Positions 2,588 to 36,611 of a stretch of DNA of 64,000 bases are shown here, in pieces (within the stretch, counting starts at the first letter, position 1; every line of letters begins with the position of its first letter). Source of the stretch: a virus. The stretch spans positions 32,001-96,000 of the IMG/VR virus record IMGVR_UViG_3300017917_002938; one strand, written 5' to 3'. The position numbers and the translations under genes are program-made. A model generated the notes under the pieces. It saw only the letters and a program-made list of their open reading frames with translations, searched no databases and was not told where the DNA came from.

Positions 2588-5500
2588 TTAGCTAACAGTG
2601 ATGCTTGAGTTTGATGGATTTTCTACTGTTATATCTATTGTCTCAACGCTTGTCTTCAGCACACCACCAAAATATTGAGTTCCAGCTACATGAAGAACTT
2701 CTCTTAAGACATCTCTATATGTTTCTATAGGGATTGCACTTTGCACTTCATAAGAGTATTCTTGGTAATAACTACCATCAAACAATTTTTTTGTATCGCT
2801 TAAAAAACCGTCAGTAGAAAGATACCTACCTTCGCCTACACCCTGATTAAGAATGTTCGTTTTAGCGGTAGCAGAGAATCCTTGACGGTTAGTAAATGAA
2901 ACAGTTTCATCTTGAATGTAGCCTAAACCAGAATCAATAATCTCTACATTAGTTACTGCTCCATTGGCTGAAATAACTCTGGCATCAATGAATGCATTTT
3001 CACCCATAGCCTGTGAACCTGCCTCAACGGTAACACTTTGGGCATTAGCTACAGTGCCGGTTACTGAACCTATTAATTCTTTACCTACAACAAAATCTTT
3101 AAATAGAGACTGTCTTCTAACTAATAACCATCCTCTTGGATTAGTGTTACTTATTGGTGTCGGAGTAGCAGATTTTATAAACCCTCTTACAGACGTTGTA
3201 AGTGATATATTGGTTACTGATCCGTTAGCCAATTGTTTACTTGTAATAGTTCTGAAAGCACCATTTGAAAACACACCGCTAATTGGATCAATCAAAACAG
3301 TATAGGTGTTAAGATCTACATCATAAGAAGCTGCATTCACTACACCATATACAGATGTATTAGTTAATGAGTAAACATACTCACCAGGAATAGGAAGTGA
3401 GGGCATCGTGTTTGACGTAAATACAGCGTCTGTATATACGGTTAGATCCTCACCTATTCCTTTAAGAGTTACAGCAATATTAGCACTGCTTCCAGAACCG
3501 GTTACTGTTACTGACGGGGTAGATGTATAATAGTTTCCTGTATTCGACAGAGCAACGCTAGTAATAGTGCCGTTAGCAGCCGTTGTAACGGTACCGTTTG
3601 CGTTTATGCCGCCACCGCCACTGAACGCTAATACATCACCATTAGTATAACCGGTACCTCCATTGTTAATAACAACGTTCGAACTTAATATACGACTCAC
3701 TGTATAGGAAGGTATTGTAGTGTATCCTGAGCCATTGGCTGATATGGTAACTGCAGTAATAGTTCCATTAGCATTAGTAGTGATGTATGCGTTAGCCCCT
3801 GAGCCTGTTCCGGTAAATACTACAAGCTCATTATTAGTATAACTGGCTCCACCGTTCTCTATTCTTACTGCTCTTATTTTATTTGTATCTGCGGCGTCAC
3901 CTTTAATTACAACCGAGGCTGCATTTGTAATACCTACTCCCCTGTTATTATATACTAAACTTGTGATGGTTCCGTTAGAGTTAGTAACAACCGAAACGTT
4001 CGCTTTAGCTATACTACCTGTTATAGTACTAGTAAACGCAGCATTAATGAAGAAGAGACCCGTTCCATAAACTGTATTACGGAATTGATGACTTGTATTG
4101 AGTGCTGTTCCATTAGTGTATCCCCAGCCTCCGTCACTTATAGTTATAGTATTTAATTGATTATTTCCATAATAATTACCTCCGTTGGAAGTTATAGGGA
4201 GTGCATTAGTAGTTAAACTGTATCTAGTACCTGTAGTCGATTGTATAACGGCTTCACCTCGTCTGAATAGACCGGGAGTACCATCATACTCTATGTACAC
4301 ATCCTGTTTATTATACGACGCTACTAAAGGTTCATAGGGGTACACGAACGGATCAATGTTGTAATTTTCACCCGGGTTAATACTAGTAAGAGAAGCAATA
4401 GAACCTATCGAGATATTACGGGAGTCTAACAAATCATTAAGAAGAGTTTTTAAGTGTCCTGTTTGATTTCCTGCAAACCCGTATGGGAATAAAGCTATTA
4501 CGTTAGCACCAGAGCCGCCGGATAAAGTTATTGTTGGATCAGATGAATATCCTTCTCCAGTATCAACTGGCACTATTACTTCAATAGTGCCTGAGTTATT
4601 AGTTACAATTTGTAAATTAGCGACAGATGATGGAGATCCTCCTGTGGTAGATGTGTATCCGTTTGTATACCCTGTACCACCATTAGCTACCAATACATCT
4701 AAAATATTACCAAATGTAGCATTCGCACCGGTTAATTTTACACTCATGAAAGGAACCGATAAAGTACCTAGACCGTCATTATTACCAGCCAATCTATCAG
4801 AAGTAACTGTAACAGTTTCAGCATTCTCAATAAAACCAATCTGGGCATTAGCAGTTTGTCCACTATAGATATTAGTTATTTCTACTTCTATGTCTGATTC
4901 ATCACCCTTCAATCTACTACCTACTCCGTAATAAAAAGTATTGCTTATGTCTATTAACCCTAGATGGCCACCACCAAACCCATATTGGCCTGCTGTCCAA
5001 CTAGTATGAACGTTAGAGCCCATCACATTACCTGATGCTGTTACGCTAGAATAGGAATTAATGTATCCACCAATATTAGAAGATGCTTTTATAGTACCAC
5101 TCACAAATCCAGATGTACTAATTATAGTATTAGATTCATTAAAAGAATTGCCGCTAGTGTTTGTTATTCTTAATCGTTTAGTGCTGGTAATGAAAGTGGG
5201 ATTGGCATTTCCAAGATAGAAGGTAACGTTTGCAACGTTAGAAAAAGCTGATATACCGGACAAGTTGCTAAATGTTCCTTGAACATTTGCAAGTACCACA
5301 TAGCTTACATTTGACTGATTAAAATTAGATTTCCAAGGCACACCTACAATATATCCGTTAGCAGTCGACCCTTGTCTTACAAACTGACCAGGAGCAAAAC
5401 CACCGGCTATAGATCCAGTATCTAATTCTACTACTACAGTATCTGTGACACTTTCAATTATACCAGTGGTAACGTTAGCAGAACCATTACTCTGTACAAC

Positions 5501-24303: not shown

Positions 24304-24756
24304 TTAAAATGCAAATTTGACACCAGCATTTACTGAGCTACCATCAAAGCTGTCGATGCGAGATTGTCCTAGTTGATAGCGATAATCTGCTGTTAAAGCT
24401 ACTGATTTAGTAATTGAATAGCTTGCGCCAGCACCTACTAGCCAAGCATACCCATCAGAGCCTGTGCGGTTATTAATAAAACCTGCACCTCCCTTTGCGG
24501 TAAGTACGATAGGTCCTACTTTGGTAATATCTACAGTACCTAGAACGGAATATCGTTCTTGTTCGATACCACTGTTGCGAAATTGATCGTAAGCGAGCTC
24601 GAACCCAGTATCACCACTTTTCTTTCCGAGGGTAATACCAACAGATGATCTATCGGTTCCTGCGAAACGTTCTCCTCCGTTAATTCCTAGCTCGAATGCT
24701 GAAGCGGCCGTAGCGCTCAAAAACAAAATAGAAAAAATAGCCGTTTTAAACTTCAT
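24304..24756 (-). CDS. Outer-membrane beta-barrel protein (OmpA/Ail-Lom-like)
   Basis: Start re-assigned to MKFKTAIF (signal peptide ending ASA); amphipathic strands; terminal Phe (AGVKFAF). Confidence 0.8.
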   Translation of the reverse strand: MKFKTAIFSILFLSATAASAFELGINGGERFAGTDRSSVGITLGKKSGDTGFELAYDQFRNSGIEQERYSVLGTVDITKVGPIVLTAKGGAGFINNRTGSDGYAWLVGAGASYSITKSVALTADYRYQLGQSRIDSFDGSSVNAGVKFAF

Positions 24757-24784
24757 GAATAGCCTTTCAATGTTATGATAAAAA

Positions 24785-25091
24785 GAGAAGTTTTTATTCT
24801 GTTGCCAAGTCAAAAACCTCTCCACAAAAAACTCCGGTCAGCGGTTAGGCTGCCAGTGCAAATCTTTCATCGTTTGCGTTTACTTTTTTTGCTTGATTTA
24901 CGGTCATCGCCTACCGTGTTGCCGTCTCTACTATCTACCCCTGTCGAAACCATGACTGGCCCATTAGAAAGAACTCTTTAGTATAGTCTGTAGCACTTGT
25001 CTGTCTCTATACAGGATGAAGAATTCTTTCTGGTGGACCAGGCGGGAGTCGAACCCGCGTCCAGAAGTCCTTCGCTTTGAAGGGATCACAA
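24785..25091 (-). ncRNA. ssrA: Two-piece (permuted) tmRNA; tag ANDERFALAA
   Basis: Acceptor piece ends ..GACGCGGGTTCGACTCCCGCCTGGTCCACCA at 25031; coding piece starts GGGCCAGTCATGGTTTCGAC at 24962; GGGCCAG/CTGGTCC stem with G3:U70; tag ORF 24877-24845; outer ends approximate. Confidence 0.92.
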
Positions 25092-25098
25092 CAATTCT

Positions 25099-25308
25099 TT
25101 ACTTAGGTGCGCCGGTTGGCTCGGCCTTCTTGTGTGTTTTGATCTTCTTACACTCTTGAACTTTTTTCCCGTCCTTGCCTACGACAGGCTTACCATCTTT
25201 ACCTACTTTATCATGACATACTTCTTTAACTACTGCTTCTGCATGCACTGGTGCAATAGAAGTAACTAAAAATAGTGATAATGCAATGGTTGACAATTGT
25301 TTTAACAT
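25099..25308 (-). CDS. Small secreted Lys-rich protein
   Basis: Signal peptide, two Cys, AGGAG RBS. Confidence 0.65.
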   Translation of the reverse strand: MLKQLSTIALSLFLVTSIAPVHAEAVVKEVCHDKVGKDGKPVVGKDGKKVQECKKIKTHKKAEPTGAPK

Positions 25309-27603: not shown

Positions 27604-27678
27604 TGGTGGGCTGACTAGGAATTGAACCTAGACTCAATCGATTATGAGTCGACTGCTTTACCATTAAGCTATCAGCCC
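27604..27678 (-). tRNA. tRNA-Ile2(CAT)
   Basis: Cloverleaf; GTCGACTCATAATCGAT anticodon arm like lysidine-accepting ileX; CCA encoded. Confidence 0.8.
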
Positions 27679-28337
27679 GTATTATTTAAAAGTTGATCGG
27701 TAAATTCTAATAGTAATTTATGTTGCCTGCCTTCATGATACAACCCTCTCATCCAGCTATGAATGGTGTACCAGTAACGTTGACTTTCTGGATGACAACC
27801 TATAAGGCCGATGTTGTTTTGAATTGCTGCCATAACATCACCATTCTTATACCTGGCAACAGTTTTAAACATGCTTTCGTTTCCTACTATAGCACAACCG
27901 TCAAAAAAGAACATCCTTTCTTTGTTACCGTTCCATTCAACTTCTATATTTTTTGCATGAGGGCGTCTTGTATCAGTTCCTGGTCTCCGTATATATTGAA
28001 CAGTATCGGCTTCTTTTAGTATATTAAAATAGTGCTTACCGGCCCAATATGCTCCCATACAAATGCCAAGGTACTTGCCTCCTCCGTTTACAAATTTCAT
28101 TACGTGATCGTGATTTTCTCTCATCAAGTAATCAAACGAATCGGAGGATCCTTCCCCTCCAGGAAAAATCACTACATCAACGTCATCAAAAAAATCATCC
28201 TCAACTTGATGTCGAGTAAATATTTTAAATTTGTAGTGTGGTGTAAGTGATTCTATTGTTCCGTTAACGCATTGTATGGAACACTTTGGATGATGTAAAA
28301 ATATTGCTGCCGTTGTGTGCTTGTATGTCAAAGACAT
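27672..28337 (-). CDS. BPL_N / class I glutamine-amidotransferase-like protein
   Basis: [24 protein letters not shown]. Confidence 0.8.
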
Positions 28338-28350
28338 AACCTCGTGTTGT

Positions 28351-28433
28351 TGGTACCCGAGACGGGATTCGAACCCGTACGCTTTTGGCGGGGGATTTTA
28401 AGTCCCCTGTGTCTACCGTTCCACCACCCGGGC
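28351..28433 (-). tRNA. tRNA-Leu(TAA)
   Basis: Cloverleaf with variable arm, CCA. Confidence 0.92.
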
Positions 28434-28438
28434 GACTA

Positions 28439-28657
28439 TTAATTGTTATTTTTCTTTACAAAATCTACAATCTTTTGAGCTTCTGTTAACACTGCCTCTA
28501 CAGTTGGTGGCTCTTCTTGGAAATCGGGACTAATCATTCCTGTCTGAGGGTTGCGAGTGCGTTCCATTTTGGAATAAAAAGACTGGTTTACTTGATCACG
28601 TGCAAGTTCTACCGCACGCACTACAAAATTAGACTCATTAGATTGATTGATAATCAT
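28439..28657 (-). CDS. Hypothetical protein
   Basis: AGGAG RBS; PTVEAVLTEAQKIVDFV. Confidence 0.6.
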   Translation of the reverse strand: MIINQSNESNFVVRAVELARDQVNQSFYSKMERTRNPQTGMISPDFQEEPPTVEAVLTEAQKIVDFVKKNNN

Positions 28658-28668
28658 TATAACTCCTA

Positions 28669-29325
28669 TTAACGAATTGTATATTGTCCGACAACTGCAC
28701 CAGGTTTTTGTAGTGTAGCATCGCGACGCTTCTTGTATTCCTCGTTGTCCACTTCAAGCAATTCAATTACACCATCAGAAGCACGAGACTGTTTATCTAG
28801 CTCTTTAAATTTCTTCTCTCTCAGCTCATTTCTAGAATTATTGTCAACGAGACGGCGGCTTTCATCGAGGGGGAGAGATAGGAGTACAAAAGCTCTATAA
28901 CCGTCTTTTTCTTTCGTTAGGAAAAGCTTTTCGCGTTTATACATTGAGAGTGATTGCTTAGTAACAATTTTAGAAACACGATCTACTTCCCTATCAATAC
29001 TTTTCATATCAGCAGTACCCTGTTCGTTTACTGACTCACGAATCATAGATTCTACTACTACGTTAACGCGATTGGCTAGTTCGACCCTGGCATTCATCAT
29101 TGCTTTGTCGATAGCAAATTGCATGTGTTTAGATACATCGGTTGCACTAACGTAGATCATTTTATCCGTAGTTAACGAGTCGTTGGTGTACCAATCAGGT
29201 ACCTCTCCTTTGAACTCAGCTACCGCTACCGTTTTTACTCCATCGGTAGTATTAGTTTTAAACGCTGAACATCCAGTCTCAAGAATACCAGCTGCGCACA
29301 GCAATAAAATTGTTAACATTCTCAT
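28669..29325 (-). CDS. Lipoprotein (LPP20-like)
   Basis: Lipobox-like TGC, VPDWY, QFAIDKAMMNARVELA. Confidence 0.65.
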   Translation of the reverse strand: MRMLTILLLCAAGILETGCSAFKTNTTDGVKTVAVAEFKGEVPDWYTNDSLTTDKMIYVSATDVSKHMQFAIDKAMMNARVELANRVNVVVESMIRESVNEQGTADMKSIDREVDRVSKIVTKQSLSMYKREKLFLTKEKDGYRAFVLLSLPLDESRRLVDNNSRNELREKKFKELDKQSRASDGVIELLEVDNEEYKKRRDATLQKPGAVVGQYTIR

Positions 29326-29334
29326 TTCACATCC

Positions 29335-30054
29335 TCATAGTCTAAAAATAGAATAATCCTTATAAACAACTCTTCGAGAGTACACCGGTAGAGTTTTAAT
29401 AAGCTCGTCCAAATGCTTCTTACTGATGTTATCGTAGTCGAAATTAAGCTTGGTCGACGTAAAAATAAACACCAATGTCTCTTTAGAGAAGTTAACGCCG
29501 TCTTTTAGTTTTGCTTCAATATGAATCGAGTTCAATTTATAAAAGTCGGAAGGAAAAATAAACTTACCGTTCACTACTCTATCCATATTATATTGAAGCG
29601 GATGAATTAAATCAACCCCATCTTTATAAACAGCAAAGACGTACATATGAACGGGTTGACGAGCATTAACGGTATACTCTACTATGTCACCGTTTTTAAA
29701 TTCACTCTTACCGTTTACTGTTACGTAGATTGATGCTGGATTATTTACTAAAACTTTCACTTCAGAATGACATATACCATTCCGTATGATTGTCTTTGAG
29801 GAAATTACTTTATTAATTTGACCCGCAGCATATGTCTCTGATTCTTTTTGATACTGACATGATGGGTCTTTGTTTTTAGTGTCTGCACAAACGTACGTTT
29901 CCACAGATTCAATAAGCATTCCGTTAGCTTGTTTAAGAGCGTGTTCAAATGCTTTTGACTCTGCAATTGCACAATTGTTATGTTCTCCCTTACCGTCATA
30001 TACCTGAGCGGTTACGACAGAAGGGAGAAGCAATGCTAGAAGTAATTTTTTCAT
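29335..30054 (-). CDS. Secreted protein, possible DUF4384-like C-terminal domain
   Basis: Signal peptide; GDIVEYTVNARQPVHMYVF..LIHP. Confidence 0.5.
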   Translation of the reverse strand: MKKLLLALLLPSVVTAQVYDGKGEHNNCAIAESKAFEHALKQANGMLIESVETYVCADTKNKDPSCQYQKESETYAAGQINKVISSKTIIRNGICHSEVKVLVNNPASIYVTVNGKSEFKNGDIVEYTVNARQPVHMYVFAVYKDGVDLIHPLQYNMDRVVNGKFIFPSDFYKLNSIHIEAKLKDGVNFSKETLVFIFTSTKLNFDYDNISKKHLDELIKTLPVYSRRVVYKDYSIFRL

Positions 30055-30060
30055 ACTAGT

Positions 30061-30090
30061 ATTGTAACGAAAATGAAAAAATAAAGCAAC
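30061..30090 (-). promoter_or_regulatory. Phage early promoter (leaderless transcript likely)
   Basis: GTTGCTTTATTT..TACAAT, 17-nt spacer; ATG 6 nt downstream. Confidence 0.7.
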
Positions 30091-30101
30091 TAGTTTATGT
30101 C

Positions 30102-30176
30102 TGGCCCGGCGTGAGGGAATCGAACCCCCATTCGCACTTTAGAAGAATGCTGTCCTATCCATTGAACGAACGCCAG
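30102..30176 (-). tRNA. tRNA-Arg(TCT)
   Basis: Cloverleaf, CCA. Confidence 0.9.
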
Positions 30177-30185
30177 GTATTGTTA

Positions 30186-30656
30186 TTATGCTGCTTTCAG
30201 AGATTTAAATCTATCGGCTGCATATGAGGCTGCGAAAGCTTCTGGTTTAACCAAAGGTACAACATTACATGTACCACGAATGTATCCAATAGCTTCATTC
30301 ACCACGCATGATGATCCGTGCATTTCGTTAGGGTTGATGTCAAGATGAACTTGAACATCTCTGCCTTCTAGTACATCAGCAAGCTTCAAATACAATTCAC
30401 TAACCTTATACACCTCATTCATTAGACGGTAACGTGGGCGATTAAACTTTTGATCGTAGTCACGTTCTTTTTGAATTTCACCAAATAGTTTACAACCGTT
30501 ATTACCGTTGATGTGAACGACAATAGCTAGAATGTAATCCGCCCACCATTCCTTACCAACTTTATATCTCTCAGAGTCACAACCAATATAGATTTTTGTT
30601 TCTGGAGATTGCGCCTGAATGAATTCTTTTACTTCTTCTAGATCAAGCTTACGCAT
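30186..30656 (-). CDS. RNase H-like YkuK/DUF458 protein
   Basis: IYIGCDS..RLMNEV..VHLDINP..VKPEAFAASYAADR. Confidence 0.85.
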   Translation of the reverse strand: MRKLDLEEVKEFIQAQSPETKIYIGCDSERYKVGKEWWADYILAIVVHINGNNGCKLFGEIQKERDYDQKFNRPRYRLMNEVYKVSELYLKLADVLEGRDVQVHLDINPNEMHGSSCVVNEAIGYIRGTCNVVPLVKPEAFAASYAADRFKSLKAA

Positions 30657-30671
30657 AGTACTACCTTTCTA

Positions 30672-30745
30672 TGGCACCCCGAGAGGGATTCGAACCCCCA
30701 CCAACGGTTTTGGAGACCGCAATGCTGCCGTTACACCATCGAGAT
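30672..30745 (-). tRNA. tRNA-Trp(CCA)
   Basis: Cloverleaf, CCA. Confidence 0.9.
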
Positions 30746-30756
30746 ACGTTTTTTAT

Positions 30757-31017
30757 TTAGGGTGAGGATATGAGTTTGATCCGGCAACGAAGCCGCTTAG
30801 CAATATGCAATTAGCAATATGCAATAAGCAGACCACAAAGCATAGGATTCCGTTTATCAACAAGCAGCGACTTTCGTCTTGTATGGAACGGAGCAACAAG
30901 CATGGGTTGGTCGGGATTGATCGGATTCGGGTTAACAAGGCCCAAACCTAGCTAGTAAGACATTTCAAGTGTCAACTAGATTGCAACAACGCCCCCTTCA
31001 CTCCCCCATACCCTCAA
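30757..31017 (-). ncRNA. Unannotated structured RNA with tandem heptamers
   Basis: 5'/3' closing stem GAGGGTATGGG/CTCATATCCTC, several hairpins, five tandem TGCWWAK units. Confidence 0.6.
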
Positions 31018-31021
31018 AACT

Positions 31022-31603
31022 TTATAGAATACCTTCCGCTTTAAGAGTCTGAACGGTTAGTTCAGACAATGTAATCAAGGTATTGACATTGAGTTGTAAG
31101 AGTTTATCTTGCAGCTCTTGACGATCACGCTTGAGGTTTCTAACTGCATTTTTTGCAGCGTCAATATCTGATTGCAACACTACGCTGGTTTCAACGTTGT
31201 TAAAACGGTCACCGTAAATGGATGCACGCGCAGAATCGGAAGGTTGTTCTTTGAACTTTTGAATTCGTGCACTGATTTCAATCTGACTCTTACGAGGTTT
31301 GAGACCTGCAATCACACTATGTACGGCCATAGAAGCGTCTGTAGCTTCTACTTCTGCTAAGATAGTGTTAATGTCAGCATCAGCATTAGCCTTACCTACG
31401 CGTTTACGAATGTCGTACATTGCGTTGATAAGTGATAGTTTACGAGTAACTGTATCGTTTAACTCTGCACGGTTTTTGGTAAGAGTATCTTCTACCCCAT
31501 CTGTAAACTCAGATACCTGAGTCTCAGATTCAAATTTTATTCCGTTAATAGTTTTACGAATCTCGGCTTGAATTGCATTAGCTTTACGTAGATTAACTTG
31601 CAT
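31022..31603 (-). CDS. Coiled-coil protein, weakly resembling the DIP1984/DUF6847 family
   Basis: ATG after AAGGA; NLRKANAIQAEI..YDIRKRVGKAN..LKRDRQELQDKLLQLNVNT. Confidence 0.6.
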   Translation of the reverse strand: MQVNLRKANAIQAEIRKTINGIKFESETQVSEFTDGVEDTLTKNRAELNDTVTRKLSLINAMYDIRKRVGKANADADINTILAEVEATDASMAVHSVIAGLKPRKSQIEISARIQKFKEQPSDSARASIYGDRFNNVETSVVLQSDIDAAKNAVRNLKRDRQELQDKLLQLNVNTLITLSELTVQTLKAEGIL

Positions 31604-31628
31604 GTTATTTCCTTTCAATCAATAATGT

Positions 31629-31658
31629 ATTCTATATGAATTTTTTAATAAGATCAAC
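31629..31658 (-). promoter_or_regulatory. Phage early promoter
   Basis: GTTGATCTTATT..TAGAAT, 17-nt spacer. Confidence 0.7.
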
Positions 31659-31659
31659 T

Positions 31660-31735
31660 TGGTGCTGCCTCGTGGGATCGAACCACGTTCCTCGGTTCTT
31701 CAGACCGGTGCTATGACCACATCAGCTAAAGCAGC
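31660..31735 (-). tRNA. tRNA-Phe(GAA)
   Basis: Cloverleaf, CCA. Confidence 0.88.
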
Positions 31736-31742
31736 ATTAAAT

Positions 31743-31817
31743 TGGTACCTGGTCACGGTTTCGAACCGCGGACCCTCTCCTTGTAAGGGAGACGCTCTAC
31801 CCCTGAGCTAACCAGGC
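31743..31817 (-). tRNA. tRNA-Val(TAC)
   Basis: Cloverleaf, CCA. Confidence 0.92.
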
Positions 31818-31828
31818 ATAATTCTCTT

Positions 31829-31904
31829 TGGGGTACTATAAGAGGATCGAACTCTTACTATCTCGGTCACAGCGAGAGGTGCAGACCACTACACTAATAG
31901 TACC
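31829..31904 (-). tRNA. tRNA-His(GTG)
   Basis: Cloverleaf, G-1:C73, CCA. Confidence 0.9.
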
Positions 31905-31914
31905 CCAAAAAGAA

Positions 31915-32148
31915 CTAAGTTATTTGTTTCTGTACTCTACCTATACGACTATTTTTACTCCAATCATATTTGGTTCCATCTGGACATTTTCCATCTTTGA
32001 CAGAATCTACTCCAAATTTACCAACAATCTCTGTAACGCCGTTTGTAATAGTTACAAACTTTCCATATGCTTTTGCAAACTCCAATGCATCATTCAATGT
32101 TGGACTTGCGTTTAGTATCATACCGTTTTCTATTTTAATATTCCACAT
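31915..32148 (-). CDS. Hypothetical protein
   Basis: 77 aa, AAGGA RBS, fits between tRNAs. Confidence 0.65.
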   Translation of the reverse strand: MWNIKIENGMILNASPTLNDALEFAKAYGKFVTITNGVTEIVGKFGVDSVKDGKCPDGTKYDWSKNSRIGRVQKQIT

Positions 32149-32157
32149 AAAAATCCT

Positions 32158-32231
32158 TGGCCGGGGTGCTAGGGCTCGAACCTAGAATAGCAGAGTCAAA
32201 GTCTGCGGTGTTACCATTACACTACACCCCA
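32158..32231 (-). tRNA. tRNA-Gln(TTG)
   Basis: Cloverleaf, CCA. Confidence 0.92.
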
Positions 32232-32239
32232 ATAATGAA

Positions 32240-32455
32240 TTTGTTGTAGTAGTGCCGCCATCGTTATCGGCACCATTCACCTGGATTAACTAGCCCGGGC
32301 AGGACTCGGTAAGTCACTTGGGATACTCATCCAGTTAGCAACCATACTGCGGCGATCTTCCGATCGCCCGGGAGTTGAACCCGTCCCCTTCTACTATATC
32401 AGTCCTTCGAAGAAACCTTTATAGCGTGACATTCTCTTGCTGACACTACAACAAA
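32240..32455 (-). ncRNA. Unannotated multi-stem RNA containing a T-arm mimic
   Basis: 11-bp closing stem TTTGTTGTAGT/ACTACAACAAA; nested GTCAC/GTGAC and AGGAC/GTCCT; CGGG-TTCAACT-CCCG; GGCGATC-GGAA-GATCGCC. Confidence 0.7.
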
Positions 32456-32458
32456 ACT

Positions 32459-32535
<77 letters not shown>

Positions 32536-32541
32536 ATAACT

Positions 32542-32615
32542 TGGTGCCCCTTGACAGAATCGAACTGCCGTACCCGGGTTACAAAGCCGGTGTAATACCA
32601 CTATACTAAAAGGGC
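32542..32615 (-). tRNA. tRNA-Thr(TGT)
   Basis: Cloverleaf, CCA. Confidence 0.88.
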
Positions 32616-32620
32616 AAAAA

Positions 32621-32695
32621 TGGCTCCGGTGGCTGGGATCGAACCAACGACCAATTGATTAACAGTCAACTGCACTACCGCTGTGCTACACCGGA
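32621..32695 (-). tRNA. tRNA-Asn(GTT)
   Basis: Cloverleaf, CCA. Confidence 0.92.
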
Positions 32696-32701
32696 ATAAC
32701 C

Positions 32702-32775
32702 TGGTTGCGGGAGAGGGAATCGAACCCCCATCTGGAGCTTATGAGACTCCTGAATTACCGTTACTCTATCCCGCG
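32702..32775 (-). tRNA. tRNA-fMet(CAT), initiator-type
   Basis: CGCGGG 5' end with C1:A72 mismatch, CAT anticodon. Confidence 0.82.
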
Positions 32776-32782
32776 TCAAAAT

Positions 32783-32857
32783 TGGCGGTCTCAAGGGGTA
32801 ACGATCCCCTTCTTTATGCGTGACAGGCATACGTGCGTCCATGAACACTTTGAGACC
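32783..32857 (-). tRNA. tRNA-Asp(GTC)
   Basis: Cloverleaf; atypical ATCGTTA T-loop. Confidence 0.85.
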
Positions 32858-33044
32858 TATATTCTTTGCACGGCTACGTTTTTCAAGTCGCCCCGTACTG
32901 AGTTTACAACCCTGTCGCCACCTTTGCTTATTCTGCTGTGTGGATCATCATACCAGATTCTGCTTACGTCTGCGCTAACGGTCTTCTGGACACCGGATCT
33001 TTATCGCGTAATCAAGCGCCTCTGCCACGCTGAGGAGCGGAAAC

Positions 33045-33133
33045 TGGTGGAAGTGGTAGGATTCGAACCTACAGCGTTTCTTATGTGGCGGATTTACAGT
33101 CCGTTGCCTTCAACCAATTCAGCACACACTTCC
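33045..33133 (-). tRNA. tRNA-Tyr(GTA)
   Basis: Cloverleaf with variable arm, CCA. Confidence 0.9.
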
Positions 33134-33138
33134 AATTT

Positions 33139-33222
33139 TGGTGCCCCAGGAGAGACTCGAACTCTCACGCCTTTCGACATTGGCTTCTAAGACCAACGTG
33201 TCTACCATTCCACCACCGGGGC
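33139..33222 (-). tRNA. tRNA-Leu(TAG)
   Basis: Cloverleaf with variable arm, CCA. Confidence 0.92.
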
Positions 33223-33226
33223 AAAT

Positions 33227-33382
33227 TACCATTTGTTTAGTGTTATCGTGCCTATTTGTCAACAATGTAGCTAGCACTGACAAGCGAATAACAGTTATAT
33301 CAGACAGTGTTGGTCGCACCCTTACTGTCGCGTAGTCATAGCGTCCTATGACGATACCTTTGATAACACTAAACAAATGGTA
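33227..33382 (-). repeat. 21-bp perfect inverted repeat enclosing three hairpins; one arm includes the tRNA-Glu ACCA end
   Basis: TACCATTTGTTTAGTGTTATC (33227-33247) / GATAACACTAAACAAATGGTA (33362-33382). Confidence 0.85.
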
Positions 33383-33453
33383 CACCGTACGGGAATCGAA
33401 CCCGTCTTACCAACGTGAAAGGCTGGTGTCCTAAACCGATAGACGAACGGTGC
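33378..33453 (-). tRNA. tRNA-Glu(TTC)
   Basis: Cloverleaf, CCA. Confidence 0.9.
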
Positions 33454-33480
33454 ATTTAACTTTTTTAAAGAACGAAACGA

Positions 33481-33510
33481 ATTATATTCTGCGATGGAAA
33501 ATAAATCAAC
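33481..33510 (-). promoter_or_regulatory. Phage early promoter inside tRNA array
   Basis: GTTGATTTATTT..TATAAT, 17-nt spacer. Confidence 0.8.
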
Positions 33511-33584
33511 TGGTCCTTTCGAGAGGTAACGATCCTCTGTCTCTCGGTTATCAGCCGAGTGCTCTACCTTTGAGCTACGAAAGG
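33511..33584 (-). tRNA. tRNA-Ile(GAT)
   Basis: Cloverleaf; atypical ATCGTTA T-loop. Confidence 0.85.
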
Positions 33585-33585
33585 T

Positions 33586-33660
33586 TGGTGGTAATGAAGA
33601 GACTCGAACTCCTAACCTACACCGTATGAAGGTGCCGCACTACCATTGTGCTACATTACC
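33586..33660 (-). tRNA. tRNA-Met(CAT), elongator-type
   Basis: Cloverleaf, G1:C72, CCA. Confidence 0.82.
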
Positions 33661-34193
33661 AGTCTAGATGGTTTTACAGCCTGCAATGCAAACTTTAGCG
33701 TATCGTCGGTCTGAAAGTCTAAATGTACACATTTAAAATCTGCCTTATAGATATACCTAAAATCTGACATCGATGTCTTACCAATTTGCCTTGTGTATTC
33801 GGATTGATCGAGAAATATAAGAGATTCTTTTTGAATCACTCTCGTATGACTCGGATCTCCCCATACCCAGGGCGAGTTAATATTTGGACAGGTAGCCATC
33901 AAGAAACCTCCTGGTTTCAGAATTCTCCAGAACTCACTAAACTGAGCAAAGAAAAATTTATAGTCTCCCTGTCTTCCGGTATGTTCTAGAACTTCATATG
34001 CATGAATTTCATCAAACGTATTATCCTCAAAAACCGAATATGGTATGTTACAAAGATCCCACACTATATCCGGTTTATGATCGCGGTTAATATCAAGGGT
34101 AGTTAGATTATTCCATTCAGGATTACCATCATGAATGACTTTCTCTCTACGACTACCACATCCAATTAATAGTTCTTTTTTATAGTTTACCAT
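33651..34193 (-). CDS. Class I SAM-dependent methyltransferase (Methyltransf_11-like)
   Basis: LLIGCG, FDEIHAYEVLEH, WRILKPGG, WGDPSHTR. Confidence 0.85.
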   Translation of the reverse strand: MVNYKKELLIGCGSRREKVIHDGNPEWNNLTTLDINRDHKPDIVWDLCNIPYSVFEDNTFDEIHAYEVLEHTGRQGDYKFFFAQFSEFWRILKPGGFLMATCPNINSPWVWGDPSHTRVIQKESLIFLDQSEYTRQIGKTSMSDFRYIYKADFKCVHLDFQTDDTLKFALQAVKPSRLVM

Positions 34194-34290
34194 ATAGAAA
34201 CATACTAAATCTGCGACACCGTCAAATGCCGCATCGCCTAGTTGACGCTAGACCGCCAGAGTGTGGCGTTCAGTATGTTTTTATATGGTA
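34188..34290 (-). repeat. 19-bp inverted repeat joining the tRNA-Lys ACCA end to the methyltransferase start codon
   Basis: 34188-34206 / 34272-34290, one mismatch. Confidence 0.8.
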
Positions 34291-34360
34291 GGGGCACAGA
34301 GAATCGAACTCTGATTAATAGGTTAAAAGCCTACTACTTTAGCCGTTAAGTTATACCCCC
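34286..34360 (-). tRNA. tRNA-Lys(TTT)
   Basis: Cloverleaf, CCA. Confidence 0.9.
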
Positions 34361-34482
34361 AGCAATTCTTGTTTTTGAGCTCTACGTAGTGCCTTATTAG
34401 ACTTACGATGAACTCCTGCTTTACGAAAAAGCGCTAAACGAACGAAGCAGTTACGTTCGCGCGCGATGGGTTTTCGTTTCAT
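34351..34482 (-). CDS. Small basic protein (43 aa) with stop inside tRNA-Lys
   Basis: GAGG RBS; MKRKPIARERNCFVRLALFRKAGVHRKSNKALRRAQKQELLGV*. Confidence 0.7.
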   Translation of the reverse strand: MKRKPIARERNCFVRLALFRKAGVHRKSNKALRRAQKQELLGV

Positions 34483-34580
34483 TTTTTCCTCACTTTAAGT
34501 TTTTGTCGATTACTACTATTAGTATTATTACGATAAGAAGTACTGAGACCGCCCCATGTTGTTTCTCCTTAACAAGTCTA

Positions 34581-34610
34581 ATTATAGATGTAGTTGGAAA
34601 ATAAGGCAAC
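34581..34610 (-). promoter_or_regulatory. Phage early promoter
   Basis: GTTGCCTTATTT..TATAAT, 17-nt spacer. Confidence 0.75.
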
Positions 34611-34638
34611 AACTTTTTTTCTAACTATTTCTAGTTAC

Positions 34639-34716
34639 TGGAGTGTCGAGTCAGATTTGAACTGACGGCTTTACGGGTTTGCAATCCGTTCCCTTGGACC
34701 TCTCGGGCATCGACAC
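34639..34716 (-). tRNA. tRNA-Cys(GCA)
   Basis: Cloverleaf, U73, CCA. Confidence 0.88.
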
Positions 34717-34721
34717 ATATC

Positions 34722-34795
34722 TGGTGCTGCTAGGAGGTAACGATCCTCCGTTTCCGCCTTACCAAGGCGGTGTAATACCTTTATACTATAGCAGC
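34722..34795 (-). tRNA. tRNA-Thr(GGT)
   Basis: Cloverleaf; atypical ATCGTTA T-loop. Confidence 0.85.
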
Positions 34796-34800
34796 AAAAA

Positions 34801-34888
34801 TGGCGGAGGGTATCAGACTCGAACTGATGCGCCCATTTCTGAACGACGGTTTAGCAAACCGCTGGTTTAACCGCTCACCCAACCCTCC
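34801..34888 (-). tRNA. tRNA-Ser(GCT)
   Basis: Cloverleaf with long variable arm, G73, CCA. Confidence 0.92.
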
Positions 34889-35475
34889 TAAGTAGCAAAC
34901 TTCCACTCTGTTTTTTCTTTAAACCCTACCTCACCACCTTGCTCTTTTATTCTTTTGAACACCTCTTCAAGCAGTATTGGTCTAAAGTCAATCTGCTCAA
35001 CACAGACAGAGAAATAGCGAGGATCAATTTTTTTTCCATGTTTAGTAAATCCATCATCCATTTTTACTCTATTCGAATGGAGATGTCCATGAACGTTGCA
35101 GCCAAACCGATACAGTTGGTCAGGGTGCACTGGTACATGAGTAAAAATACAACCGTTCATTACATGGCTGCCTCTGATATCTCTAAAGTATTGAGTGTAT
35201 TCTTCAAGTTTAAAAATATCGTGGTTACCTTTAATCAACACTTTGTCTCCGTTCAACCGACCTAGCGTTTTTAATGCTTTACGGTTGATAACAACGTCGC
35301 CTAGATGATATACTTTGTCATTGGGTCGAACAGTTTCGTTCCACCGCTTGACCATTTCTTCATCCATCTCATCCGGGTTATCCCACGGCCTGAGCTTCTC
35401 TCCGTCTTCACGTGTAAATCGGCATACGCCGGCGTGACCGAAGTGCGTATCGCTAACTACGAATACCGATGGCAT
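34888..35475 (-). CDS. Calcineurin-like metallophosphoesterase
   Basis: SDTHFGH, LGD, KGNHD, THVP, HGHLH. Confidence 0.92.
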   Translation of the reverse strand: MPSVFVVSDTHFGHAGVCRFTREDGEKLRPWDNPDEMDEEMVKRWNETVRPNDKVYHLGDVVINRKALKTLGRLNGDKVLIKGNHDIFKLEEYTQYFRDIRGSHVMNGCIFTHVPVHPDQLYRFGCNVHGHLHSNRVKMDDGFTKHGKKIDPRYFSVCVEQIDFRPILLEEVFKRIKEQGGEVGFKEKTEWKFAT

Positions 35476-35495
35476 ATACGCCTCCTTTCATGTTA

Positions 35496-35590
35496 TGGTA
35501 CTCCCGACAGGATTCGAACCTGTATCATCCCCTCATCTAGAGGCATCGCCGAGGTATAAGCTCGGAGTTTTACCGTTAAACTACAGGAGC
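35496..35590 (-). tRNA. tRNA with TAT anticodon (nominal Ile) and long variable arm
   Basis: 7-bp acceptor, CCGAG-CTTATAC-CTCGG anticodon arm, ~24-nt variable region, TTCGAAT T-loop, ACCA. Confidence 0.75.
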
Positions 35591-35598
35591 ATCTAAAG

Positions 35599-35672
35599 TG
35601 GTCTGGGTGGCAAGAATCGAACTTGCACCTCAAGTATCCAAGACTCGTCGACTACCACTATCCTACACCCAG
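35599..35672 (-). tRNA. tRNA-Pro(TGG), second copy
   Basis: C1:G72, A73, TGG anticodon. Confidence 0.82.
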
Positions 35673-35680
35673 ATAAAAAT

Positions 35681-35756
35681 TGGTGGACCGGCGGGGTAAC
35701 GATCCCCGATCTTCGCATTGCAAGTGCGACGTGTAGCCCTCTATCACTACCAGCCC
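35681..35756 (-). tRNA. tRNA-Ala(TGC)
   Basis: G3:U70; atypical ATCGTTA T-loop. Confidence 0.87.
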
Positions 35757-35806
35757 AAAATGACTTACTACTTGTCCTATTATACGCCATAAGTCAAGGC
35801 GAGTTT

Positions 35807-35899
35807 TGGCGGAGACGGTGAGACTCGAACTCACACACCCATTTCTGAGCCTTCGGTTTTCAAGACCGCTGCCGCTATGCCGATTCGGCTAACATCTCC
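35807..35899 (-). tRNA. tRNA-Ser(TGA)
   Basis: Cloverleaf with long variable arm, CCA. Confidence 0.92.
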
Positions 35900-35904
35900 T
35901 TATT

Positions 35905-35978
35905 TGGAGCGGATAGGGGAAATCGAATCCCACTCTGCACAGCTTGGAAGGCTGGCGACACACCTCGTGCTTACCCGC
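35905..35978 (-). tRNA. tRNA-Gly(TCC), reduced D-arm
   Basis: GCGG acceptor, U73, TCC anticodon. Confidence 0.78.
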
Positions 35979-35982
35979 ATAA

Positions 35983-36061
35983 ACCATATAAAAGTTCTTT
36001 GCTCAGTATGGACTCTGACTATGCCTTGTCGTTACAAGCATTCAAAGAACTTTTATATGGT
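35983..36061 (-). repeat. 19-bp perfect inverted repeat including the tRNA-Leu(CAA) ACCA end
   Basis: ACCATATAAAAGTTCTTTG (35983-36001) / CAAAGAACTTTTATATGGT (36043-36061). Confidence 0.85.
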
Positions 36062-36139
36062 ACCCCTGCTCGGACTCGAACCGAGACTTACTAACACTCC
36101 TTTTGAGAGAGCTGCCTTTACCAATTTGGCCACAGGGGC
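36058..36139 (-). tRNA. tRNA-Leu(CAA)
   Basis: Cloverleaf, CCA. Confidence 0.88.
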
Positions 36140-36142
36140 ACA

Positions 36143-36217
36143 TGGAGCGGGCAGCGAGGATCGAACTCGCAACTAAACCTTGGCAAGGTCTCGTGTTACC
36201 ATTAGCACCATGCCCGC
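36143..36217 (-). tRNA. tRNA-Gly(GCC)
   Basis: Cloverleaf, CCA. Confidence 0.92.
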
Positions 36218-36223
36218 ATCATA

Positions 36224-36299
36224 TGGCCGGTCCTGAGAGAATCGAACTCCCACTTCAGCGTTCGTAGCGCTGCGTAATCATCCATTTTACTAAGGACCG
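36224..36299 (-). tRNA. tRNA-Arg(ACG)
   Basis: Cloverleaf, CCA; first tRNA of the array. Confidence 0.9.
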
Positions 36300-36330: not shown

Positions 36331-36360
36331 ATTGTAGTTGAGGTAAAAAAATAAATCAAC
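36331..36360 (-). promoter_or_regulatory. Phage early promoter just upstream of the first tRNA
   Basis: GTTGATTTATTT..TACAAT, 17-nt spacer. Confidence 0.75.
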
Positions 36361-36380: not shown

Positions 36381-36419
36381 AAACAAAAACCCCAGGGTGT
36401 TTAGTCCTGGGGCTTGTGT
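36381..36419 (-). terminator. Intrinsic terminator (attenuator) upstream of tRNA array
   Basis: AAGCCCCAGG/CCTGGGGTTT stem followed by TTTTTGTTT; 5' strand alternatively pairs with 36445-36458. Confidence 0.85.
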
Positions 36420-36440
36420 TAGATCTCTAGATACTATTGG

Positions 36441-36566
36441 CTACACACAAACCCCTGGTGATGGATACTCAATGGCATTACCTCCAAATGAGCGGCCACA
36501 CTGACTCCATGTTACGTCTAGCGTAACGGAGTGTTTCAGCGATGTGGGTATGAGTGTTTGCATCAT
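36441..36566 (-). CDS. Putative attenuator leader peptide containing all 20 amino acids
   Basis: MMQTLIPTSLKHSVTLDVTWSQCGRSFGGNAIEYPSPGVCV*; directly below a -10 box; last codons form the antiterminator strand. Confidence 0.75.
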   Translation of the reverse strand: MMQTLIPTSLKHSVTLDVTWSQCGRSFGGNAIEYPSPGVCV

Positions 36567-36569
36567 AGT

Positions 36570-36598
36570 ATTATATAGCATCCTTTGCCCTAGGGCAA
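36570..36598 (-). promoter_or_regulatory. Sigma70-type promoter for the leader
   Basis: TTGCCC-17-TATAAT with upstream A-tract; -35 lies in the palindrome TTGCCCTAGGGCAA. Confidence 0.7.
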
Positions 36599-36611
36599 GC
36601 TTTTTTTTTGT

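Follow-up and report, generated by a model that had tools for sequence, protein, structure and literature searches.

What does a short open reading frame (ORF) that contains every amino acid do between a promoter and a terminator at the head of a phage tRNA array? The reason why large phages carry such arrays is debated, with codon supplementation on one side and, on the other, a need to replace tRNAs that host defences, or the infection itself, have destroyed. The ORF in question lies on the minus strand of a 64,000-nt stretch of DNA (positions 32,001 to 96,000 of IMG/VR record IMGVR_UViG_3300017917_002938; hereafter the window), which belongs to the 163.5-kb genome of a T4-like phage from lake water. 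We consider it likely that the locus is a ribosome-dependent transcription attenuator, which gauges overall decoding capacity and feeds the tRNA array. In our best reading what it reports is a slowing of decoding, whichever amino acid or tRNA class is affected; trouble with codons of any kind would probably prompt the phage to produce additional tRNAs.

The leader locus and the tRNA array

The locus opens with a sigma-70-type promoter, TTGCCC-17-TATAAT (36570..36598, minus strand, A-tract upstream), present as the first-pass annotation of this DNA had described it. The ORF that follows (36441..36566, minus strand) has 41 codons, or 40 from the second ATG of an ATG ATG pair (36566-36561). This second ATG (36563) is 6 nt past the -10 box, where a sigma-70 transcript is expected to start, and is probably the leaderless start of the ORF, in agreement with the earlier proposal. 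All 20 amino acids are encoded by codon 34, ten of them once only, and 34 distinct codons are used, again as annotated. The ORF product has no match in Pfam or PHROG, and the Rfam search returned no model matching the leader.

A mid-ORF hairpin closing at the Trp codon (36505..36531, minus strand) is a candidate RNA polymerase pause hairpin. Codons 37-41 form the 5' strand of a putative antiterminator (36445..36458, minus strand), whose 3' strand (36406..36419, minus strand) overlaps the 5' arm of an intrinsic terminator (36381..36413, minus strand; 8-9 bp G+C stem at 36413-36389, 9-nt loop, U5-G-U3). The claimed pairing at 13 of 14 antiterminator positions is correct, with one A-A mismatch and one G-U pair. 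The local fold energy of the antiterminator is -21.8 kcal/mol vs -14.6 kcal/mol for the terminator. The terminator and the mid-ORF hairpin, both of which had been predicted, are present in the minimum free energy fold (z = -3.4).

The first gene past the terminator is tRNA-Arg(ACG), followed by the rest of the array (27604..36299, minus strand), which holds 29 tRNAs for all 20 amino acids, 27 of them in 30102-36299, with small genes interleaved. The annotated spacing of about 80 nt holds (the first tRNA is 82 nt past the U-tract), but the count of 30 tRNAs has to be amended, as ARAGORN reports 29 tRNAs and one tmRNA. The latter is permuted (two-piece), of betaproteobacterial type, with the tag ANDERFALAA (24754-25145, minus strand). 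The array has no tRNA-Gly(UCC), though the leader uses GGA and GGG; it includes four CAT-anticodon tRNAs and a 95-nt tRNA with a UAU anticodon (35496-35590). Embedded in it are genes for a calcineurin-like phosphoesterase (34888-35475), a methyltransferase-like protein (33651-34193) and an RNase H-like protein (30186-30656). Where two promoters had been claimed inside the array, we find at least three promoter-like sites (34609, 33509, 30089) and a weaker one at 31657. Among cultured phages, the capsid proteins closest to that of the window phage are those of Stenotrophomonas phage DLP6 (68.5%) and Methylophilales phage Melnitz (63%); by inspection, DLP6 has a tRNA array and no such leader.

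A family of leaders that accompanies tRNA arrays

Searches with the terminator matched its exact 28-nt core in 36 viral contigs and a near-exact form of it in at least 120 contigs from metagenomes; an internal motif gave 87 contigs. After truncated and duplicate copies were dropped, the family set comprised 141 distinct leaders of 35-53 codons; one further locus, L170, was kept out of it for having no Trp. At the sequence level, a short ORF between promoter and terminator is the family-wide layout. A sigma-70-like promoter lies at most 110 nt from the ATG in 140/141 leaders, the exception (L114) having no clear, well-placed match. The spacing between promoter and ATG is 6-10 nt in 39 leaders, which are leaderless or nearly so, and 24-65 nt in the others. 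The tie to tRNA genes is close: a tRNA lies within 1.5 kb of the leader in 78 of the 79 loci with enough flank. Few genes are common to the window phage and most family flanks, which suggests that the leader cassette probably moves together with tRNA arrays.

L114 was reached through the gene upstream of the leader (synteny) alone and is a true orthologue, keeping the all-20 ORF, the terminator and the antiterminator; searches for further close orthologues of the window leader found none. Among seven loci with the upstream gene, five have neither tRNA nor leader and one (L112) has three tRNAs without the leader, so that the leader tracks large arrays and not the upstream gene. The -35 box of the window promoter is overlain by a perfect 14-bp palindrome (36584-36599), readable as a plus-strand terminator, and L114 has a different hairpin at this position.

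A DNA search of cultured phages revealed no homologue of the window leader or of the L009 leader. An exact-pattern scan of bacterial genomes gave a sole match, an all-20 leader (L108:5725-5925) on a 6.2-kb phage-like contig in a Polynucleobacter MAG, which is either a host hint or a binning error. The tmRNA type together with this related contig hints at freshwater Betaproteobacteria as host. Similar leaders may occur in Burkholderiales chromosomes as well.

Several relatives carry additional elements. In L004, L007, L009, L011 and L034 a conserved, structured-looking RNA without an Rfam match lies 20-170 nt past the terminator, before the first tRNA, and in L006, L023, L024, L033 and L036 a conserved small ORF lies between terminator and first tRNA. 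In L002, L003, L026 and L035 the T4-like late motif TAAATA, absent from the window promoter, is found inside the sigma-70 promoter spacer, and these leaders may also be transcribed late. A separate late-promoter idea, based on a CTATATA 5 nt from the ATG that is common to the window and L114, was rejected: the late motif of the phage is (A/C)TAAATA, and CTATATA is not enriched.

Amino-acid completeness and codon variety

How unusual is a leader with all 20 amino acids? For one such ORF the chance is 0.4-0.5% with phage codon usage and 1-2% if codons are drawn uniformly or the leader bases are shuffled; the corresponding values for at least 34 distinct codons are 0.1-0.2% and 5-7%, and the joint chance is 0.01-0.5%. 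In the genome, two of 215 short ORFs (35-53 aa) are complete, the window leader among them. Taken alone, the window leader (a 0.4-2% event) is suggestive and short of decisive.

The family goes further. All 20 amino acids are present in 126/141 leaders, and the remainder have 17-19. As a control for bias, we restricted the set to leaders that the terminator or synteny had brought up and clustered these at 70, 50 and 40% identity, which removes the relatedness between leaders only partly; 35/45, 18/25 and 12/16 (72-78%) of them are complete. Column permutation predicts means of 12%, 9% and 7% for these sets (maximum 32%), and the control frames and the reverse strand are complete in 0/25, 1/25 and 3/25. 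Cys, His, Tyr and Phe usually occur in one copy per leader, in a column that shifts between leaders. Completeness is kept while the sequence turns over, an outcome in favour of the original proposal. Up to 2% of shuffles of one 41-codon ORF do hold all 20 amino acids, but we give next to no credence to a chance ORF beside an ordinary terminator, which is contradicted by 141 homologues and by the statistics of their completeness, placement and tRNA linkage.

Variety extends to synonymous codons, as the first-pass annotation had anticipated: the leaders use on average 34.7 distinct codons vs 31.6 under a synonymous null and 33.6 +/- 0.2 under a column-wise synonymous null. Ser-AGY is present in 45/45 leaders (36 expected) and Arg-CGH in 44/45 (33 expected); these two classes, Ser-UCR and Ile-AUY are found in nearly every leader. 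This excess indicates that tRNA classes are sampled as well as amino acids. The earlier term "pan-tRNA" is overstated for the window leader, which has no codon of five isoacceptor classes (Leu-UUR, Arg-AGR, Arg-CGG, Thr-ACY and Ala-GCR), four of which are encoded in the array.

The position of the amino acids is also constrained. The set is complete before the antiterminator G-run in 117/141, 19/25 and 12/16 leaders, compared with 32, 6.2 and 4.0 leaders under permuted codon order. The gap from completion to the G-run has a median of 8 nt in the family and is 9 nt in the window leader; 8-9 nt is about the stretch covered by a ribosome beyond its A site. Judging by these comparisons, the leader is selected for completeness, for codon variety and for having the full set ahead of the switch.

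The predicted antiterminator/terminator switch

Throughout the family the G-run lies 10-33 nt before the leader stop codon. The antiterminator covaries across the family, an expectation of the original proposal: its positions +4 and +5 alternate between C-G and U-A and are 96% and 99% paired vs 85% and 91% when shuffled, in a register picked for best pairing, although the G and C runs determine it. Covariation extends to L114, whose antiterminator differs from that of the window by one pair changed on both sides and by one G-U replaced by A-U. Relatives, too, fold a hairpin at their Trp codon, with moderate scores (median z of -1.6 vs shuffles and -0.9 vs synonymous recoding).

These observations bear on a further alternative, in which the ORF is the gene of a small functional protein and the terminator does no more than end the transcript of that gene. 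The nearly invariant Trp and a common NDRTPE motif would fit such a protein; yet column conservation predicts fewer complete leaders than are found, a protein would explain neither the excess of synonymous codons nor an antiterminator that covaries, the window copy has no NDRTPE, and the Trp codon also closes the mid-ORF hairpin. We regard this alternative as very improbable, and continue with the attenuator.

In folding calculations the ORF end suppresses the terminator in 20/25 representatives, vs 0.05 expected from shuffled ends. When only the RNA 3' of a modelled ribosome is folded, a sharp switch is predicted 11-12 codons before the stop in the family and near codon 32-33 in the window leader, with the terminator favoured when the ribosome is near the stop. 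The untranslated leader is predicted to read through in 67/77 relatives.

The copy in the window

The predicted switch is less clean in the window copy than in most relatives. If the RNA 5' of the ribosome is also allowed to pair, 17/26 representatives still read through at most ribosome positions in the folding model, whereas in the equilibrium model the terminator is favoured for the window leader and L114 once the ribosome has passed about codon 12; for the naked RNA of these two leaders the model gives the terminator 0.93-0.97. The statement that a stall at almost any earlier codon leads to read-through is thus borne out by the model for most relatives and is ambiguous for the window copy once its 5' end pairs. 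A 5' anti-antiterminator was considered as a selected feature and rejected, as the long-range helix with the G-run is no stronger than in shuffles (p about 0.2), and may therefore be an artefact of modelling. Otherwise, this helix may represent a trp-like shut-off without ribosome loading, or a narrowed sensing window.

Furthermore, the early promoter that had been placed downstream of the terminator is indeed found there (TTGATT-17-TACAAT, 36331..36359, minus strand), between terminator and first tRNA and independent of the switch. It belongs to the commonest promoter class of the phage, with 20 minus-strand matches. With a main-class promoter past the terminator, the attenuator in the window copy can only add to a basal tRNA supply. 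This promoter is absent from L114; among 110 relatives a promoter-like match is present in 38 and absent from 72, and in most relatives the attenuator looks like the sole input to the first tRNA block. One could argue that the family is functional and that the window copy is largely bypassed or vestigial owing to this strong promoter, with its absence from L114 and the ambiguous folding of the window leader in favour. We find this quite improbable: the copy still has its 20 amino acids and 34 codons, and both terminator and antiterminator are undamaged, despite many peptide differences from L114.

Natural variants

The excluded locus L170 (Ga0315909_10000268; match at 4614-4641) has the same terminator behind a 30-codon leader with 13 amino acids. 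In 4.6 kb of this truncated locus the tRNAs cover 10 amino acids, all of which are in the leader, and none of the seven that the leader lacks. L170 may link the all-20 leaders with leaders matched to their tRNA block. A GOLLD RNA lies within its tRNA block, and promoters are present past the terminator. A general rule, by which the amino acids missing from leaders with 17-19 of them would be those of missing tRNAs, was discarded: the loci are too short for it, and the L133 leader has no Val, yet its array has a tRNA for Val.

In the cultured Synechococcus phage BUCT-ZZ01 (ON615601.1, UTS52160.1; L241:1694-1880) a 46-codon ORF with 19 amino acids (no Gly) precedes a 28-tRNA array, and a GGTGCT past the ORF can pair with the 5' arm of the terminator. 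This element, represented by one sequence, is a possible cultured analogue without evident sequence likeness. We found no description of it in the literature covered, which was mostly outside subscription journals.

Proposed mechanism and significance

We propose that the host sigma-70 polymerase would start at or near the ATG, as the spacing suggests, and that a ribosome would translate the 40-41 codons, possibly synchronised with the polymerase by a pause at the mid-ORF hairpin. If all codons are read promptly, the ribosome would cover the G-run in the last five codons, the terminator would fold and transcription would stop, in line with the folding model. If an amino acid or tRNA class is scarce, the ribosome would wait upstream of the switch point, the antiterminator would form, and the polymerase would enter the array; the folding model and the covariation are consistent with this step. 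Candidate triggers are starvation, host tRNases and phage-driven tRNA decay.

An attenuator that senses ribosome speed or disturbance in general (by antibiotics, by toxins that damage ribosomes, by shut-off), in which codon variety merely averages decoding speed, would account for the predicted read-through after any stall upstream of the switch and for that of the untranslated leaders, and antibiotics do trigger leaders of the whiB7 type. Such a sensor could do without single, position-shifting codons for Cys, His, Tyr and Phe and without an amino-acid set that is finished about 8 nt ahead of the switch; its output here would be tRNA, and in L170 all 10 amino acids served by the tRNAs downstream are contained in the 13-amino-acid leader. 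We consider it rather unlikely as the explanation, although general and codon-specific sensing are compatible and not mutually exclusive.

Returning to codon-specific sensing, we tentatively suggest, with a little less than even credence, that the leader is a "complete codon test strip", selected to sample all amino acids and the majority of isoacceptor classes ahead of a fixed switch point. It would be an alarm for host defences that destroy tRNAs of any specificity and would supply a replacement tRNA pool on demand; the cassette, passing with arrays from one phage to an unrelated one, could be re-tuned to what the array contains (L170).

If the array opens only when decoding falters, on-demand tRNA replacement would be favoured as its purpose, and this question could be put to the test with a 220-nt reporter. 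A coding region under selection for a full set of amino acids, and not for a sequence, is constrained in an unusual way. The leader element would also serve as a compact biosensor for starvation or tRNase activity.

Comparison with known systems

The leaders of amino-acid operons (trpL, hisL, pheL, leuL, thrL, ilvL) contain runs of 1-3 amino acids and control biosynthetic enzymes. The phage leader resembles the trp, his, thr and ilv leaders in having a leader ORF and mutually exclusive antiterminator and terminator within reach of the ribosome, and its mid-ORF hairpin is a candidate counterpart of their pause hairpin. Unlike them it has no cognate codon runs, each rare amino acid occurring about once, and tRNA genes instead of biosynthetic or synthetase genes lie downstream; the Rfam leader models give sub-threshold matches only. 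In contrast to trp, most family members are predicted to read through when untranslated. T-box riboswitches also read tRNA status and switch a terminator, but bind one uncharged tRNA directly; no T-box model of Rfam matches the leader at gathering score or at E <= 10.

Among uORFs that sense antibiotics we know of no requirement for amino-acid completeness. Ribosome stalling on the uORFs of vmlR (PMC9226507), msrD (10.1101/2021.11.29.470318) and toiL (PMC12121999) is reported to turn on downstream genes in answer to drugs; these uORFs control protein genes, whereas the phage leader precedes tRNA genes. In the literature covered, largely outside subscription journals, we found no description of attenuation of phage tRNA arrays.

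The first-pass annotation had invoked trp/his/thr logic, of which the shared layout stands; the closest known logic is that of the whiB7/wblC uORF of mycobacteria, in which full translation leads to termination and stalling to the antiterminator (10.1101/2023.06.02.543512). There, what is sensed depends on which amino acids the uORF contains: that of M. smegmatis has 19 amino acids, composition varies by species, and several amino acids are absent from that of M. tuberculosis. A uORF stripped of its single Trp codon responds less to Trp starvation, which shows that one codon can matter for sensing, and loss of the start codon raises read-through (10.1101/2023.06.02.543512). Similarly, the 3' end of the phage uORF overlaps the antiterminator, and complete translation is predicted to lead to termination. 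For the untranslated leader the folding model predicts read-through in 67/77 relatives and the terminator in the window copy. The two systems differ in that the output of whiB7/wblC is a transcription factor, while the phage leader sits before tRNA genes, and in that the phage leaders, with 35-53 codons, are kept complete and with extra isoacceptor codons. We claim no shared ancestry. In sum, the phage leader appears to work like whiB7/wblC and is laid out like trp/his/thr, yet it belongs to neither, having no codon runs and a different output.
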